Assembly: GCA_947385365.1 (NCBI GenBank) | Contig: CANDKT010000002.1 | Span: forward strand, 5,024-69,023 | Origin: an uncultured Bacillota bacterium | Lineage (GTDB): Bacteria; Bacillota; Clostridia; Oscillospirales; Oscillospiraceae | Length of the DNA stretch: 64,000 nucleotides | Direction of reading: 5' to 3' | Part shown: positions 29,397 through 36,634 of the stretch, piece by piece | Layout: each line of letters begins with the position of its first letter | Numbering within the stretch: position 1 is the first letter of the stretch | The notes under the pieces: generated by a model | Database searches by the model: none | Told to the model about the DNA's origin: nothing | Seen by the model: the letters and a program-made list of their open reading frames with translations, nothing else | Translations under genes and position numbers: made by a program

Positions 29397-29432
29397 CAAA
29401 GCCCCTCGGACCGATGGTCCGGGGGGCTTTGC
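29397..29432. terminator. Bidirectional hairpin terminator at the end of the left S-layer gene
   Basis: CAAAGCCCCTCGGACC-GAT-GGTCCGGGGGGCTTTG, near-identical to 35352-35386. Confidence 0.75.
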
Positions 29433-29469: not shown

Positions 29470-32091
29470 TTACTCACCTGCGGTCGCGCTGGTCAGGAAG
29501 ATGCACACGGCGCCGTCTTTGGAGACGTTCATGTACAGGGTAGCTTCCTCGATGCGGCCATTGTCCAGGTTGCGGCGCACGGCGTCCAGGCTGCCCAGAG
29601 CGCTGCTGTACTGGTCGTCCTCGTCACGGTCGTCCTTGGAGCGGACGTCGGTGAACTTCGCGTCGGAGACGTCGATGTCCTGAACCTCGTACTTGCCCAG
29701 AGTGACAGTCAGCAGATTGTCATACAGGTCGTTCTTGTCGTCGAAGATGACGCCAGCCAGAACGCCTTCGTCCTTGTCATCCTGCCAATCCAGGTTGCCG
29801 GTAACGGTCATGGCCTCGGCCTCGTCCAGCTCATAGTAGCCGTCGTCGTTGGTGCCGTAGGTGTAGAAAGCGGGAGTCTTCAGGCCGTCGCTGCCGTACT
29901 CGCCTCCGTCGATCTGCCAGGTCTCCTTGCTGCCGTCAGGCAGATAGACGTCCTGGTCACGGTAGCCGTCGCCGCGCTCGCTGCTCTCGGACTTCACGAA
30001 GATGACGTCTTCGCTGAACTCAGTCTTCTGGTCGGCGTCGTTCACGCAGAACAGAACGTAGCTGGCAACGGAGGAGCCGTCTTCCGTAATCACGATGGCG
30101 GAATTGACTTCGCTCTTGTAGGACACGCCGCCGACGTAACGGGACACGTCCAGGTCATTTCTGGTGTCTTCCAGGAAGAGGTACACGGTGGAGGAGTTCA
30201 AACGCTTGGAAGAGATACCAGGAACGTTAGAGAGGCGGGTAGCGGACTTGCTCAGGTCAGGAGTGAACTTACCGGTGCTGGTATACACATCCCAATCCTT
30301 ATCGGACCAAGTCTTGAGGTTCCACTTATCGTTGTTGGCCTTGCTGTCGCCGGTCTTCTTGTCGGAGATGGTGACGAGCGAGCCGCTCAGAGCGTCGAAG
30401 TCATATTTGCTGGCGCTCAGGTCATTTTTACCGGTGCCGAGTTCGTGATCTTTCGTTTCCAGTTTGTACTCAGCCTTGGTGCCGTCGTCCAGGGAAACCA
30501 GCTGAGCGTAGTAGGAGGTCACGTCAGCGCCAGCGACGGTGTTGGTCTCATTCCAAACCACGTCCACATAGTAGACGTCGCTCAGGTCGGAAGAAGCCTC
30601 GATGCCTTCGATAGCCAGGATGCGGTTGTCCTTATCCAGGTACAGGCGATAGCTGTCGTCGGAGCTGGTGGAAACCTTATCGACTGCGGTGAAGTCGCCA
30701 GCGGTGTCGATGGTACCGGCGGCGTAGTAACGCTGGCCGTCCACGACGACGGACTCGGCGTTCTTGCGGGTGCTGATGGAGCCTTCGACGGTCTCGGGGA
30801 TGAAGGAGTCGATGATATCGCCGTCGTCATTGACGACCAGGGCGACGTAGGCGTCCTCGACGTAAGTGTCGGGGTTGAAGCCGGGGATATCGGTGTTCTT
30901 GATGTCGTCGCCGGAGTTATCGAAGTTGACGTAAGCGGAGACGCCCTTCTTGGAGTCGCTGGAGGACACGTCGTCGTCGACGTCGGTGATCTGGTCCAGA
31001 ACGTAGTTGTAAGCAACGACGCGCTCGATTTCGTCGGGCTCATTCTCGACCATGAACAGCTCGTAGGTAGTGCCATAGGTGGCCTCTGCCTTCAGGTCAG
31101 CAGCGGACTTCTCGTCGCCGTTGAGCCAGAACTCAGCTTTGTTCTCCAGGTCATTGGGGTAGGTCAGGTCGTCGTTGTCAGCCAGATCCTGAAGGACATC
31201 CAGAAGGGACTTGCTCTTGTTCTTATCGTTGGTGTAGATATCGTTGACGACCAGGACCTGATCGGCGGCGTCACCATAAGTACCAACTTCGCTGCCCTTG
31301 TACTTCCACTGGGTAGCGGAACGGCCGAAGCTGTCTTCCTTCTTGGTGAACTTCTCCAGGTCGCCGTCGTACAGCTCTTCGCCCAGCTGGATGACATTGG
31401 TATCGCCAATCTTGGTGAACTTCTTGCCGGAACCGGTGCGGGGGCTGTAGGTAGCGCGGCCAGCGACCAGATTGCCATCAACGATGGTCACGCCGCTGTT
31501 GCCGTTGGGAGCCACGGCGTCCGCTTCCAGAGTGTTCAGAATCATCTGAGCGACCTGGTTACGGGTCAGGGCTTCGATTGCGCCGTTGTCAACGCCGTCG
31601 AAAATGCCGTTCTGAGTGCCCAGCTTGGTGGTCTCGACCAGCCAGTCATCGCCGAAGTCGCCCTGGTACTGGAAGTAACCCAGAGCTTTCATCAGCATCA
31701 GAGCAGCCTGGCCAGTGGTGACGGAGTTATCGCCGCCATACTGGGTAGCGCTCATACCAGCGACGATGCCGTTGGTATAGCACGCGGCGACGTAGTCGGC
31801 GGCCCAGTCAGGCACATCGGTGAAGGGCGCGGTGCCCTTGTAGCTGGAGACGACGTAGTCCATCAAGTTACACATGATGACGGCCATCTCGTTACGGGTG
31901 ACGTTCGCGTCGGGATTGAAGTTGCCCTTCTCGTCGCCGGTCATGATGCCGACGGCCTGGAGAACTTCAATGGCTTCGGTGTTATGCTCGGAAGCCACAT
32001 CCACATAGCTCGCAGAGGTACCCACGACCATCATGCCCATAAGCATGACAGAGGAGAGCGCCAGGCTGAGAGCCCGCTTCAAGTTTCTCAT
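29470..32091 (-). CDS. S-layer protein variant A (signal peptide, N-terminal SLH repeats, acidic body), 873 aa. Predicted ON in this assembly.
   Basis: MRNLKRALSLALSSVMLMGMM signal. SLH motifs GIMTGDEKGNFNPDANVTRNEMAVI, GIVAG..VTTGQAALML and LTRNQVAQMI. Strong AAAGGAGG RBS. Highly biased C-ending codons. Confidence 0.9.
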   Translation of the reverse strand: MRNLKRALSLALSSVMLMGMMVVGTSASYVDVASEHNTEAIEVLQAVGIMTGDEKGNFNPDANVTRNEMAVIMCNLMDYVVSSYKGTAPFTDVPDWAADYVAACYTNGIVAGMSATQYGGDNSVTTGQAALMLMKALGYFQYQGDFGDDWLVETTKLGTQNGIFDGVDNGAIEALTRNQVAQMILNTLEADAVAPNGNSGVTIVDGNLVAGRATYSPRTGSGKKFTKIGDTNVIQLGEELYDGDLEKFTKKEDSFGRSATQWKYKGSEVGTYGDAADQVLVVNDIYTNDKNKSKSLLDVLQDLADNDDLTYPNDLENKAEFWLNGDEKSAADLKAEATYGTTYELFMVENEPDEIERVVAYNYVLDQITDVDDDVSSSDSKKGVSAYVNFDNSGDDIKNTDIPGFNPDTYVEDAYVALVVNDDGDIIDSFIPETVEGSISTRKNAESVVVDGQRYYAAGTIDTAGDFTAVDKVSTSSDDSYRLYLDKDNRILAIEGIEASSDLSDVYYVDVVWNETNTVAGADVTSYYAQLVSLDDGTKAEYKLETKDHELGTGKNDLSASKYDFDALSGSLVTISDKKTGDSKANNDKWNLKTWSDKDWDVYTSTGKFTPDLSKSATRLSNVPGISSKRLNSSTVYLFLEDTRNDLDVSRYVGGVSYKSEVNSAIVITEDGSSVASYVLFCVNDADQKTEFSEDVIFVKSESSERGDGYRDQDVYLPDGSKETWQIDGGEYGSDGLKTPAFYTYGTNDDGYYELDEAEAMTVTGNLDWQDDKDEGVLAGVIFDDKNDLYDNLLTVTLGKYEVQDIDVSDAKFTDVRSKDDRDEDDQYSSALGSLDAVRRNLDNGRIEEATLYMNVSKDGAVCIFLTSATAGE

Positions 32092-32137
32092 TGGAAATTC
32101 CTCCTTTATGTTTCGGGTCTGTCTGCGGACCGGTTTT

Positions 32138-32163
32138 GCAAGGGGAGTGCCACTCCCCTTACA
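32138..32163 (-). repeat. Left inverted repeat (IRL), putative recombination core site
   Basis: GCAAGGGGAGTGCCACTCCCCTTACA is the exact reverse complement of 32497-32522. It is internally palindromic (AAGGGGAGTG-C-CACTCCCCTT). Confidence 0.9.
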
Positions 32164-32212
32164 GGGGGGGCGTGCTTCGCCGCACACGGTCCACTTCCGA
32201 ACCTCTGGCGAT

Positions 32213-32241
32213 ATTTTAGCAAATCAATTTTTGAATGTCAA
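32213..32241 (-). promoter_or_regulatory. Near-consensus sigma-A promoter facing the left S-layer gene
   Basis: Minus strand TTGACA-TTCAAAAATTGATTTGC-TAAAAT: 17-bp spacer plus extended -10 TGn. Confidence 0.85.
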
Positions 32242-32355
32242 CAGGAGAGACAAAAGTGTAACAAACCTGTAATAATCCCCTCCCGCGCCGCCTAAGCCGT
32301 CTGCAACAGACCGGAGAATCGCCTTCCAGCCCACAAAAACAGCCGAATTTACAAC

Positions 32356-32452
32356 GTCTACCAAACGTCTACCATCCCCTACCCCCCGCCGCTTGCTGCA
32401 CAGCCTGTCCAGCTCCATCTACCGGAACCTGGTCTACCAAATGTCTACCAAA
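32356..32452 (+). repeat. Paired direct repeats GTCTACCA(AA), putative integrase arm-type sites
   Basis: Copies at 32356, 32367, 32432 and 32443 (two pairs, each 11 bp apart), plus a degenerate ATCTACCG at 32417. Confidence 0.7.
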
Positions 32453-32496
32453 CACCTCAAAATCCGCCCCTATACCTTTAAATATAAATACCCCTA

Positions 32497-32522
32497 TGTA
32501 AGGGGAGTGGCACTCCCCTTGC
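32497..32522 (+). repeat. Right inverted repeat (IRR), putative recombination core site
   Basis: TGTAAGGGGAGTGGCACTCCCCTTGC. Confidence 0.9.
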
Positions 32523-32567
32523 GCACCGGAACGCGAAAGAACCCGAAACATAAAGGAGGAATTTCCA

Positions 32568-35318
32568 ATGAGAAACCTGAAGCGGGCTCTCAGTCTGGCG
32601 CTGTCCACCGTTATGCTCATGGGCACAATGGTCGTCGGCTCTTCTGCGAGCTATGTGGATGTGGCTTCCGAGCATAACACCGAAGCCATTGAAGTTCTCC
32701 AGGCCGTCGGCATCATGACCGGCGACGAGAAGGGCAACTTCAATCCCGACGCGAACGTCACCCGTAACGAGATGGCCGTCATCATGTGTAACTTGATGGA
32801 CTACGTCGTCTCCAGCTACAAGGGCACCGCCCCCTTCACCGATGTCCCTGACTGGGCCGCCGATTACGTCGCCGCGTGCTACACCAACGGCATCGTCGCC
32901 GGTGTCAGCGCGACTCAGTACAACGGTGACAGCTCCGTCACCACTGGCCAGGCCGCTCTGATGTTGATGAAGGCTCTGGGTTACTTCAAGTACCAGGGCG
33001 ACTTCGCTGATGACTGGCTGGTCGAGACCACCAAGCTGGGCACTCAGAATGGTATCTTCGACGGCGTGGACAACGGCGCTGTTGATCCCCTGACTCGTAA
33101 CCAGGTCGCTCAGATGATTCTGAACACTCTGGAAGCCGACGCCGTGGAAGCCAATGGCAACAGCGGTGTGACTATCGTTGACGGTAACTTGGTCGCTGGC
33201 CGTGCTACTTACAGCCCCCGTACCAATGCCAACGATAAAAAATTTGGCAAAATCGACAACGAAAAAACTTACAATTATGACCGCTATATCATCCAGTTGG
33301 GCGAAGAACTTTACGGCGGCGATTTGGAAAAGAACGCCAGTGAGACTGACGACTTTGGCCGTCCTGCTACCCAGTGGAAGTACAAGGGCAACAACGTTGG
33401 CAAATACGGTGAAACTCCTGATTACGTTTTGGTTGTTGCTGACGACTATACGAAGAAAACTGACCTGCGAGCAATTCTCCGGGATGTAGCTGACAACAAT
33501 TCCTTGGAACTGACATATCAATATGAGAATGATAATGGTCGGATAGTTACTGCTGAGGCTGAATATTGGCTCAACGGCAACAACACAAAGGAAGACAACG
33601 ATAACGAAGTGGATTTGGAATCTGCTGACCTCGCTAAGGATGTTGCCACCTATGGCACTACTTACGAGTTGTACATGGTTGAGAATAAACCTGACGTAGT
33701 TGAGAAAGTTGTTGCTTATAACTACAAGCTGTATCAGATCACTGATGTTGACACTGATGTGTCCTCTGGCGATTCTAAGAAGGGCGTAAACGCCTATATT
33801 TCCTTCGATGCGGATATCAGCGATGCAGTCAACGATACAGATATTCCTGGCTTCAATTCTGAGACCTATGTCGAAGATGCTTATGTGGCTATGATTGTCA
33901 ATGACAAACAAGAAGTTGTCGACTCTTTCATTCCTGAGACCATTGAAGGTTCTGTGGGAACCAAGAAGGGTAGCGAGAATGCCAAGGTCGAGTCTCTCAC
34001 TATGGACGGCGATCGTTACTACACTGCTGGTACTATGAGTGACTCTAGCGACTTTGTTTACACGACAAGACAGGTAGAGACCGGTTCCGACAATACCTAT
34101 CGTCTGTACCTGGACCACAACAACCGTATTCTGGCCGTTGAGGGTGTTGAGGCTGTTTCCTCTCTGGGCGATGTCTACTTTGTGGACACGATTTGGAAAG
34201 GCAGCGATACTGTTGCTGGTGTTGACACGGAACCCTATTTTGCTCAGTTGGTTTCCCTGGAAGATGGCACCAAGGCTGAGTATAAGCTGGAAAAGGACAA
34301 CCACAAGAATGGTACCGAAACCTTGGATGGCCAGACTGCTGACCAGCTGAACAAAACTTTCGGAAAGCAACTGGTTACAATTTCCGATAAAAAGGAAAGC
34401 ACTAAGGGTACCGACTATAGCAGTAAGGCCAACAACGATCAGTGGAACCCGAAGATGTGGGAGACTAAGAATGATTGGACAGAGAGAACTGATGAGTTTT
34501 CTGATCTGACATTAAAGAAGTCCACCAAGAGCATCGCAGTTGATGGAGAGACCTATCGTTTGAACTCTTCCACTGTGTATCTGTTCCTGGAGAAAGAAAA
34601 GAATGATTTGAGCGTGTCCCGTTATGTTGGCGGCGTTTCCTACAATACAAAGGATAACGTTATTGTCACTGCTATCAAAGAAAAAGACGCCGATGTGGCT
34701 AGCTATGTTCTGTTCCGGGTTAGTGACGCTGACCAGGCCGCTGAGTACAGTGAGGATGTCGTCTTCCTGTACAGCGAGAGCAGTGACATTGGTGATGGCT
34801 ATCGTGACCAGACAGTCTATCTGCCCGACGGCAGTGAAGAGACTTGGCAGGTCGTTGATGGTGAGTTCGAGGGAACTGGTTTCTACACCTACACTACCAA
34901 TGACGACGGCTATTATGAATTGGAACTTGCTAGTGAGATGAAAGACACAGCCAACCTCAGTTGGGACGACGAAGAGGGCGTGTTGAGTGCTTGGATTTTC
35001 AGCAACAAGTCTCAGCTGTTTGAGAATTTCCTGACCGTGACTAAAGAGAACGGAAGGGTTTCCGACATTGATATTTCCAACGCCGTATTCAAGGATGTGC
35101 GCGATAAGGACGATCGTGGTGCGAACATCGAAGGTACAAATTACAAGGAATACAGAAGCGCTTTGGGTAGCTTGGACGCTGTGAAGCGGAATATGGGCAG
35201 CGAGAAGAGAGACGACATCGTAAGTGCTGAACTGTACCTGAATGTTTCCAAAGACGGTGCTGTAACTATCTTCCTGACCAGCGCTCCGTCTCTGAAAGCG
35301 GACGTACCCCAAGATTAA
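32568..35318 (+). CDS. S-layer protein variant B, 916 aa. Predicted OFF in this assembly.
   Basis: About the first 219 aa are nearly identical to variant A (signal + SLH). The remainder is colinear but diverged, with AT-richer codons. Confidence 0.9.
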   Translation: MRNLKRALSLALSTVMLMGTMVVGSSASYVDVASEHNTEAIEVLQAVGIMTGDEKGNFNPDANVTRNEMAVIMCNLMDYVVSSYKGTAPFTDVPDWAADYVAACYTNGIVAGVSATQYNGDSSVTTGQAALMLMKALGYFKYQGDFADDWLVETTKLGTQNGIFDGVDNGAVDPLTRNQVAQMILNTLEADAVEANGNSGVTIVDGNLVAGRATYSPRTNANDKKFGKIDNEKTYNYDRYIIQLGEELYGGDLEKNASETDDFGRPATQWKYKGNNVGKYGETPDYVLVVADDYTKKTDLRAILRDVADNNSLELTYQYENDNGRIVTAEAEYWLNGNNTKEDNDNEVDLESADLAKDVATYGTTYELYMVENKPDVVEKVVAYNYKLYQITDVDTDVSSGDSKKGVNAYISFDADISDAVNDTDIPGFNSETYVEDAYVAMIVNDKQEVVDSFIPETIEGSVGTKKGSENAKVESLTMDGDRYYTAGTMSDSSDFVYTTRQVETGSDNTYRLYLDHNNRILAVEGVEAVSSLGDVYFVDTIWKGSDTVAGVDTEPYFAQLVSLEDGTKAEYKLEKDNHKNGTETLDGQTADQLNKTFGKQLVTISDKKESTKGTDYSSKANNDQWNPKMWETKNDWTERTDEFSDLTLKKSTKSIAVDGETYRLNSSTVYLFLEKEKNDLSVSRYVGGVSYNTKDNVIVTAIKEKDADVASYVLFRVSDADQAAEYSEDVVFLYSESSDIGDGYRDQTVYLPDGSEETWQVVDGEFEGTGFYTYTTNDDGYYELELASEMKDTANLSWDDEEGVLSAWIFSNKSQLFENFLTVTKENGRVSDIDISNAVFKDVRDKDDRGANIEGTNYKEYRSALGSLDAVKRNMGSEKRDDIVSAELYLNVSKDGAVTIFLTSAPSLKADVPQD

Positions 35319-35351: not shown

Positions 35352-35386
35352 CAAAGTCCCCCGGACCGATGGTCCGGGGGCTTTGC
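35352..35386 (+). terminator. Hairpin terminator after the right S-layer gene
   Basis: CAAAGTCCCCCGGACC-GAT-GGTCCGGGGGCTTTG. Confidence 0.75.
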
Positions 35387-35518: not shown

Positions 35519-36634
35519 ATGGCAAGAAAAACCGTGGAACGCAACATCTCCTATGACGACATCCGCCGCCGCTGGTACGTGAGTATGGACCTGGGCCGGG
35601 ACGATCAGGGCAAACGGCGGAAACGTTACCGGACTTACACCAGCCTCCCCGCCGCCCGCGCCGGACTGCGCGAGTTCCTCTCACACCGCGAACAGGAAAT
35701 CTCCCTCTGCCGCTGCCCCATCACACTCGGACAGTGGCTGGATCAGTGGATGCAGACCATCGTTCGCCCCAACCGCGCCGAAACTACCGCCTACGCCTAT
35801 CAGAAAATTATCGACAACCACCTGCGCCCCGCCTTGGGGGATCGCCCCTTGCTGCGCCTCACCCCCGGCGATATCCAGCAGTACTACCTCCGCGTCCAGC
35901 AAGACGCCGGGTTGTCCTCCAATACCTTGCGCCATCACCATAATTTGCTCTCTTCCGCTTTCCGTGCCGCCGTAAAACAAAATATCTTGCTCCGCTCCCC
36001 TATGGACCGCGTGGAACCCCCTCGGGCCAGACTCCACGAAACCAATTTCTATAGCCCCGATACCCTCAAACGCCTCTATAGCCTCCTGGCCGGACGCCCC
36101 CTGGAACTGCCCGCACGCCTGGCCGGCAGCCTCGGCCTGCGACGCGGCGAACTGTGCGGCCTGAAATGGGAAAACGTCGATTTTCAACGACAGGTGATCT
36201 GTATCTGTGAGGCCCGCACTACCTTCGGCGCAGAGGTCGTCCAAAAAGAACCCAAAAATAACGCCTCCGTCCGTACCCTCTACATACCAGACGAAATCCT
36301 TCAACTCCTTAGCTCCGAGTGGAACCGTCAACAGTATTCCCCCCAACCTCTCGACGGCTACGTCATCCGGAACCGGAAAGGTCAGCCTTACTCCCCAAAC
36401 GCCCTCTCCCTCGCCTTTACCCGCTTCGTTCGGAAAAATCACCTGCCTTGCCTTACCCTCCACGGCCTCCGGCACTCCTTCGCTACCGTCGCCGCTTGCC
36501 AGGGCGTCCCCCTCTTCGATATCGGTAAAGCCCTCGGCCACGCCAACCCATCCACCACTGGCCGTATCTATACCCACCTCGTCGACCGTACCCACACCGA
36601 AACCTTAACCCGAGTCTCGAACGCACTCCGTTAA
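35519..36634 (+). CDS. Tyrosine recombinase/integrase with N-terminal arm-binding-like domain
   Basis: Catalytic set intact: GLRRGE (R), EPK (K), HGLRH, LGH, TTGRIYTH (Y). N-terminal WYVSMDLGRDDQGKRRKRYRT is typical of ICE/phage integrase arm domains. AAGGAGG RBS. Confidence 0.95.
   Translation: MARKTVERNISYDDIRRRWYVSMDLGRDDQGKRRKRYRTYTSLPAARAGLREFLSHREQEISLCRCPITLGQWLDQWMQTIVRPNRAETTAYAYQKIIDNHLRPALGDRPLLRLTPGDIQQYYLRVQQDAGLSSNTLRHHHNLLSSAFRAAVKQNILLRSPMDRVEPPRARLHETNFYSPDTLKRLYSLLAGRPLELPARLAGSLGLRRGELCGLKWENVDFQRQVICICEARTTFGAEVVQKEPKNNASVRTLYIPDEILQLLSSEWNRQQYSPQPLDGYVIRNRKGQPYSPNALSLAFTRFVRKNHLPCLTLHGLRHSFATVAACQGVPLFDIGKALGHANPSTTGRIYTHLVDRTHTETLTRVSNALR

Follow-up and report, generated by a model that had tools for sequence, protein, structure and literature searches.

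Two genes for SLH-domain S-layer proteins are transcribed away from each other in the window, the 64,000-nucleotide stretch of DNA analyzed here, and the region between them harbors two copies of one 26-nt sequence in inverted orientation. The question that this locus raises is whether these repeats, IRL and IRR, function as core sites for the tyrosine recombinase encoded next to them. Our principal reading, to which we assign a probability of roughly 0.75, is that they do and that inversion of the 333-bp segment between them would switch a promoter from one S-layer gene to the other; we infer recombinase binding, the cleavage positions, and inversion in the window's genome from sequence comparison.

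The left S-layer gene (29470–32091, minus strand; 873 aa, assigned from its ORF and Pfam SLH) now lies behind the promoter, and the right gene (32568–35318, plus strand; 916 aa, Pfam SLH) behind a module marked by GTCTACC repeats; these two divergent paralogues are the only members of their S-layer family in the window's genome. Their 5′ regions form a 700-nt inverted homology of 91% identity (31435–32134 on the left, partnered with 32525–33224), which covers the leader, the ribosome-binding site (RBS), the signal peptide, and SLH repeats. Within these inverted 5′ coding regions, 188 nt are perfectly identical (32643–32830 and the mirror in 31829–32016), a run that at the sequence level suggests recent gene conversion between the SLH copies. 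A 29-nt GC-rich dyad, apparently a shared terminator, closes both genes (29397–29425 and 35352–35380; 93% identical), and since these 3′ dyads are nearly identical, the duplication spans both gene ends.

IRL (32138–32163) consists of an arm TGCAAGGGGA, a 7-bp overlap GTGCCAC (32147–32153, central C at 32150), and a mirror arm TCCCCTTACA, as defined by the sequence, by pattern and repeat searches, and by homology to an element found across the genus. IRR (32497–32522) is the reverse complement of IRL, with the overlap GTGGCAC (32507–32513, central G at 32510), such that GCAAGGGGAGTGCCACTCCCCTTACA at 32138–32163 is identical over 26 nt to the reverse complement of 32497–32522. Each repeat encloses a dyad that is perfect over 10 bp around one base: AAGGGGAGTGCCACTCCCCTT in IRL (32140–32160) divides into AAGGGGAGTG-C-CACTCCCCTT and AAGGGGAGTGGCACTCCCCTT in IRR (32500–32520) into AAGGGGAGTG-G-CACTCCCCTT, where C 32150 and G 32510 are given for the plus strand. 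Reading of the sequence and the pattern search both bear out the preliminary description of this DNA, which had reported a 10-bp dyad around a single base in each repeat. Allowing up to two mismatches, the dyad pattern has two matches in the window, compared with 0 expected from 100 shuffles. These are also the only two copies in the whole assembly (2.69 Mb, 88.5% complete), and the further genome-wide copies that had been envisaged, as silent cassettes or co-regulated invertons, were not found beyond them. A search for further cores in the window's genome gave two 14-nt partial matches, inside long ORFs or beside a start codon, a count at the level of the reversed-pattern control.

A tyrosine recombinase core site comprises two inverted binding arms around a 6- to 8-bp overlap, the asymmetry of which sets inversion versus excision. 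Both repeats display the two inverted 10-bp mirror arms of this definition, each site being built from an arm TGYAAGGGGA, an overlap GTG-S-CAC, and an arm TCCCCTTRCA, and the overlaps GTGCCAC and GTGGCAC are mutual reverse complements. The central pair is the sole asymmetry inside the 21-bp dyad. Directionality resting on one nucleotide had been described as unusual; since a 7-bp overlap is unable to be a palindrome, a central pair is the least asymmetry possible, and the GTGACAC of most relatives is built alike, which makes this a family trait. What is peculiar to the window's locus, on sequence comparison, is the mirror-image arm on the gene side, which, like the central C/G, was not seen in relatives. 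The 26-bp identity next to some 19 diverged base pairs had furthermore been taken as a sign of selection on the site, and both observations are real: the 19 nt on the RBS side of the repeat (32522–32540) contain 10 differences between the two sides, one indel among them, beyond which 36 nt of the RBS/start block are identical again. Given the perfect 36- and 188-nt runs deeper in the 700-nt inverted homology, the 26-nt identity is unexceptional by length alone. What sets the repeat apart is that its inner edge marks the end of left–right homology and that diverged sequence lies between it and the RBS.

In public genome and metagenome contigs, the exact palindrome occurs at eight loci, none of which is similar in DNA to this locus (blastn) and several of which are flanked by terminator-like T-runs. 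A second copy of the intact switch was not found in public contig scans and exact-protein look-ups; in the latter, both SLH proteins were without a public record, and the recombinase protein was present on one other public contig of the species, which starts ~75 nt inside the right SLH gene, within the repeated 5′ region, and is uninformative as to orientation.

The segment between the cores (32164–32496; 333 bp), which is predicted to invert, carries a promoter module beside IRL and a GTCTACC module beside IRR, placed back to back. It is a short segment with a promoter between inverted repeats, the layout seen in promoter invertons of the fim and Bacteroides type. The promoter is of the sigma-70 type (TTGACA-N17-TAAAAT with a TG extension, 11 of 12 consensus matches; 32213–32241, minus strand); its homologue in relatives is their single S-layer promoter module, the one in genome G017 being 77% identical (E 3e-9). 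Because it lies on the minus strand (32241–32213), the left SLH gene is the one currently driven. Just upstream of the −35 are GTTACA-type repeats (e.g., GCAATGTTACACCTTTGTTACA; window 32257–32273, minus strand); such repeats precede the S-layer promoter genus-wide, in recombinase-less genomes too, and they are therefore probably a regulator site and not a recombinase site.

The opposite side of the segment holds a first GTCTACC-N4-GTCTACC direct-repeat pair (32356–32374, plus strand) and, 47 nt before IRR, a second pair accompanied by a third degenerate copy (32432–32461, plus strand). The two pairs are 76 nt apart and face the right SLH gene, and like pairs occur upstream of the S-layer paralogues of relatives. 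Sequence comparison places the pairs at a fixed spacing from the core, and they are candidate arm-type or regulator sites: they could be arm-type sites for the N-terminal domain of the recombinase, and the 7 + 4 layout of GTCTACC would presumably suit an OmpR/PhoB-type regulator equally well.

The recombinase gene is intact (35519–36634, plus strand; 371 aa) and begins 200 bp past the right SLH gene. Pfam (PF00589), sequence and fold matches in the PDB, motif positions, and a structural model assign the protein to the lambda/Tn1549 integrase type with an N-terminal extension, and the nearest solved structures are those of Tn1549 Int and lambda Int. A motif search locates the full catalytic set (R208, K246, H315, R318, H341, and Y351), in agreement with the Tn1549 Int alignment. 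The whole model is poor (mean pLDDT 59.6) and was used for the N-terminal part and family-level fold matches only; residues 1–63 are predicted to form strands and a helix (pLDDT 71–86), and the alignment of full-length lambda Int begins at residue 41.

To place this locus in context, we compared it with a set of 112 genomes that belong to the genus Lawsonibacter, judging by the names given to homologues. Recombinase orthologues, full-length and 50 to 73% identical, are found at about one per genome in roughly 70 of the 112. At none of 20 fetched loci of relatives does the recombinase gene lie beside S-layer genes, nor are RNase J and the motifs nearby, and it adjoins a divergent gene for an FAD-dependent protein in at least 11 of the 20 as well as in the closest metagenomic homologues; compared with these fetched relatives, only in the window's genome does the recombinase lie beside the switch. 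The FAD-dependent protein gene of the window's genome (G000:C66:10872-12446) is on another contig than the recombinase (35519–36634), and thus either the recombinase gene or the S-layer pair was relocated in this lineage. No genes of an integrating mobile element were seen at the window locus, and the chromosomal neighborhood of the recombinase in relatives is conserved.

This comparison reveals that S-layer paralogues starting with MRNLKRAL... have one of two upstream module types, P or G. In type P, GTTACA repeats accompany a sigma-70 promoter that is a homologue of the window's, with (GGA)TGCAAGGGGAGTGACAC about 52 to 83 nt after the −10, whereas type G contains two GTCTACC pairs 75 to 90 nt apart and then TGTAAGGGGCGTGACAC or a close variant ~75 nt on. 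The element AAGGGG-N-GTGACAC that the S-layer genes of relatives carry (GTTATAC or GTTATGC in some genomes) is homologous to the window's site. Upstream of the element, P and G modules are unrelated, and downstream they are identical in a direct comparison within G016/G019; the base before GTGACAC goes with the left module, being A in P and C or T in G. In relatives, conservation is good in the left arm and poor in the gene-side arm, unlike textbook core sites. The full palindrome is represented across the genus only by partial dyads with two mismatches, in four genomes; such dyads (e.g., AAGGGGCGTAACACCCCCTTT) are found once each at G064:C83:15401, G032:C44:11705, and G135:C212:3408, in three other genomes of the genus.

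Of the 112 genomes, 35 contain a P-module match, in every case exactly one, and GTCTACC-N4-GTCTACC matches are found in 57 genomes, with two to six module loci in each of four mapped relatives; the window's genome has one P and one G module. The P module precedes its left gene and the G module its right gene, the two being fused back to back between the inverted elements, and no related genome carries the same compact two-gene arrangement. In relatives, a SpoIIE-family gene and a conserved 50-aa ORF lie upstream of the single promoter module (L157–L160), which in the window has moved into the cassette. No sigma-70-like promoter was found in three G modules, and no other promoter type was recognized in them by eye; on the basis of its sequence we infer that the G module is silent, although it may have a promoter of another or an activator-dependent type. 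Between their first and second GTCTACC pairs, the type G modules of relatives contain a strong terminator-like hairpin that is missing in the window and that could insulate silent S-layer genes from upstream transcription. The possibility that the GTCTACC pairs, at which several contigs end, are the ends of a multicopy mobile element was rejected given the location of 17 of 21 copies upstream of an MRNLKRAL... SLH gene (the remaining four have no such gene within reach), and the contig ends fit repeat-induced assembly breaks.

The element and the recombinase co-occur across genomes. Because related genomes are non-independent through shared ancestry, the counts overstate the support: among genomes whose P module could be evaluated, all 16 with a recombinase orthologue have the element and none of the 10 without one does, and an orthologue is present in 49 of the 51 genomes with at least two GTCTACC-N4-GTCTACC matches. 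The element is also absent in one genome whose orthologue is only 50% identical, and an orthologue was not found in G097 and G131 (93% and 87% complete), though GTCTACC modules are present there. The same element ahead of solitary S-layer genes in genomes lacking the recombinase, a pattern that the preliminary description had named as pointing to a mere 5′-UTR element, is clearly not what these genomes contain.

Natural recombinants in public contigs of one related species, drawn from two NCBI assemblies and several mouse-gut metagenomes, locate the point of exchange. Alternative junctions of the same modules at a fixed site are seen across samples of this species, and they represent differences between samples or strains, not switching within a clone. 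The G module of one locus, which is flanked on the chromosome by a 432-aa gene, an Rrf2 gene, and an M20 peptidase gene, is conserved with 0 mismatches over 351 nt in six contigs, where it is joined to three different right partners: a 1528-aa SLH gene followed by a PucR-type gene, a 1554-aa SLH gene followed by a transporter gene, and a non-S-layer stretch beside a GntR-type gene. With the third partner (L151/L153), identity falls to 54/200 immediately after GTGACAC, and one recombinant contig ends exactly at GTGACAC. The 1528-aa SLH gene is found behind two different G modules, those of the Rrf2 locus and a flotillin locus, and the flotillin-locus module also fronts a 1696-aa SLH gene; furthermore, a single P module, invariant over 531 nt (0 mismatches), occurs with two different right modules. 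Since the variable bases flanking GTGACAC each stay with their own module, exchange is confined to 7 bp, and at least the event that involved the unrelated partner cannot have come about by homologous recombination. Of the two ENA contigs with that junction, L151 and L153, one has A and the other T directly after GTGACAC. The GTCTACC module joined to this S-layer-less stretch by the GntR-type gene may be a parking or OFF site.

The exchange boundary of relatives at AAGGGG-N-GTGACAC supports the original proposal that the window's repeats are inverted tyrosine recombinase core sites with the 7-bp spacer GTGCCAC/GTGGCAC. Because the central C/G and the palindromic arm are absent in relatives, the specificity of the window recombinase, which is at most 73% identical to any other, is extrapolated. 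On our model, each site would comprise two 10-bp recombinase-binding arms (TGYAAGGGGA and its mirror) around the 7-bp overlap, and as the overlaps are reverse complements that match at 7/7 positions in antiparallel alignment, a productive synapsis would invert the 333-bp segment. The promoter would thereby move from the left to the right S-layer gene, the left gene would receive the promoterless-looking G module, and either one or the other S-layer protein would be on display. The other synapsis alignment would have a mismatched center. Going by lambda Int and Cre, such a synapse should begin exchange and then revert; with all four arms equivalent, about half of the synapses here would be futile, and in the rare case that the mismatch is tolerated, the promoter cassette would be deleted. 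The GTCTACC pairs would be at a fixed distance from one core only, in either orientation, an arrangement that would suit a bridging N-terminal arm-binding domain. The window would then represent the compact two-gene form of a system that works across much of the genus with one P and several G modules, in which the orthologous recombinase, encoded elsewhere in relatives, would have to act in trans.

Other explanations must be weighed against this one. The palindrome might be a transcribed 5′-UTR hairpin, acting in mRNA stabilization or processing, that was duplicated together with the leader, in which case the locus would be a fixed inverted duplication that does not invert. The dyad in the transcript folds to a 12-bp stem with a 3-nt loop, the leader fold is more stable than that of shuffled sequences (z = −3.1), and the leader, RBS, and 5′ coding region are all duplicated, with the 36- and 188-nt perfect runs elsewhere in the duplication; in addition, no second orientation was seen in public contigs. 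However, relatives keep the left half and GTGACAC but, since the left and gene-side arms bear no relation to each other there, have no stem, so that the conserved feature is the exchange junction and not the hairpin; the element is missing from the S-layer leaders of recombinase-less genomes, and left–right homology does not extend inward past the repeat. The stem would also start ~46 nt past the predicted transcript start with no U-run after it, whereas protective mRNA hairpins usually act at the 5′ end. With the perfect 10 + 1 + 10 palindrome specific to the window's genome, an mRNA-hairpin role is not ancestral, and the earlier suggestion that the site doubles as an mRNA stabilizer receives no comparative support from relatives, which are hairpin-less at the homologous place. 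An RNA role may have been added in the window's lineage, and we regard a hairpin in a fixed duplication as an improbable account of the locus.

Switching might instead proceed by RecA-dependent recombination or gene conversion across the 700-nt homology, much as in the Campylobacter fetus sap system, without need of the 26-bp sites and the recombinase. That homology is long, 91% identical, and inverted, its 188-nt perfect run hints at ongoing gene conversion, and an inversion by crossover within it would likewise carry the promoter to the other gene. We nonetheless consider that this route is unlikely to account for the switch, given that the junctions in relatives fall at the 7-bp element even without homology on the right side (L151/L153) and that the orthologous recombinase tracks the element across genomes and adjoins the switch here; the RecA route and the recombinase route are not mutually exclusive. 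It is also conceivable that the locus is a dead relic, in which an aberrant recombination left two left arms joined head to head and so locked the sites. The gene-side arm does mirror the left arm, unlike in any relative, and misaligned synapsis at a near-palindromic overlap could in principle fuse left arms, but the two sites agree at all 26 positions next to 19 nt that have diverged, and the recombinase is intact with all catalytic residues and is found beside the switch in this genome alone, which makes a locked locus very improbable.

Having favored site-specific inversion by the adjacent recombinase, we extend this reading to the genus as a wider proposal that stands at about even odds. 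Under this proposal, Lawsonibacter would possess an undescribed form of S-layer variation in which a non-mobile lambda-type integrase acts in trans on one P module and several modules with GTCTACC arm sites, in a relationship reminiscent of attP and attB, with exchange at a near-palindromic 7-bp sequence; the window would be an evolved end-point in which the recombinase was relocated, the modules were fused, and the gene-side arms were mirrored. The mirrored arms may free the reaction from arm sites and accessory factors. A literature search found no paper on S-layer switching in Lawsonibacter or its relatives. In these abundant gut anaerobes, the S-layer is the outermost surface, and phages and host antibodies have it as a prime target, and a recombinase-driven choice of S-layer would explain the strain-level surface diversity of Oscillospiraceae as well as the many assembly breaks at these loci. 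The two-gene switch would offer a minimal model, with a 26-bp symmetric site, a direction set by one base pair, and an adjacent single recombinase, and it makes testable how little asymmetry enforces inversion over deletion; even before any experiment, the natural recombinants of relatives narrow the exchange down to 7 bp.

Several known systems share parts of this design. In C. fetus sap, an invertible 6.2-kb segment with an outward promoter lies between opposed S-layer cassettes that share a 5′ region, silent homologues are present, and recombination takes place in that conserved 5′ region and depends on RecA. The window resembles sap in its promoter cassette between opposed S-layer genes, but it points to a dedicated tyrosine recombinase, a 7-bp crossover, and a 333-bp segment. 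Clostridioides difficile cwpV, switched by RecV, has a 195-bp segment bounded by 21-bp inverted repeats in the leader, and the recombinase may be encoded far off; that segment is promoterless and provides a terminator-based ON/OFF control of one gene (PMC2784873). The likeness here is a Firmicute cell-wall protein under short-segment inversion, with a distant recombinase as in the Lawsonibacter relatives, whereas the window's segment holds a promoter and would alternate two genes. With loxP and FRT, the window's sites have in common perfect inverted arms and a short spacer with an asymmetry that by itself determines the outcome. The fully palindromic spacer of loxPsym leads to deletion or inversion by Cre at random (PMC10850332); the 7-bp overlap here keeps its central asymmetry, the arms are 10 bp and not 13 bp, and the enzyme is of the lambda/Tn1549 type and not of the Cre type. 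To the lambda and Tn916-Tn1549 integrases, the recombinase is linked by its best matches, its predicted N-terminal sheet and helix, and the direct repeats of 11-bp period near one core, which recall attP versus attB. It differs from them in that no mobile element is present and inversion or module exchange would replace integration and excision. Finally, in vpma of Mycoplasma agalactiae and vsp of M. bovis, a unique promoter serves surface-protein paralogues that each carry a short recombination site in the 5′-UTR, and site-specific inversions by the Xer1/Mbr tyrosine recombinase link another of the silent genes to the promoter while leaving the site unchanged through rounds of switching (PMC2268961). 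One-promoter logic, paralogous genes, and a site-specific tyrosine recombinase are common to those loci and to the one described here. The differences are that the proteins here come from a Gram-positive gut relative of Clostridium and are S-layer proteins with SLH anchoring; that the Lawsonibacter relatives have modules scattered over the chromosome, a recombinase encoded elsewhere, and paired GTCTACC repeats in the non-promoter modules; and that the window is reduced to two genes, one 333-bp segment, and palindromic cores.
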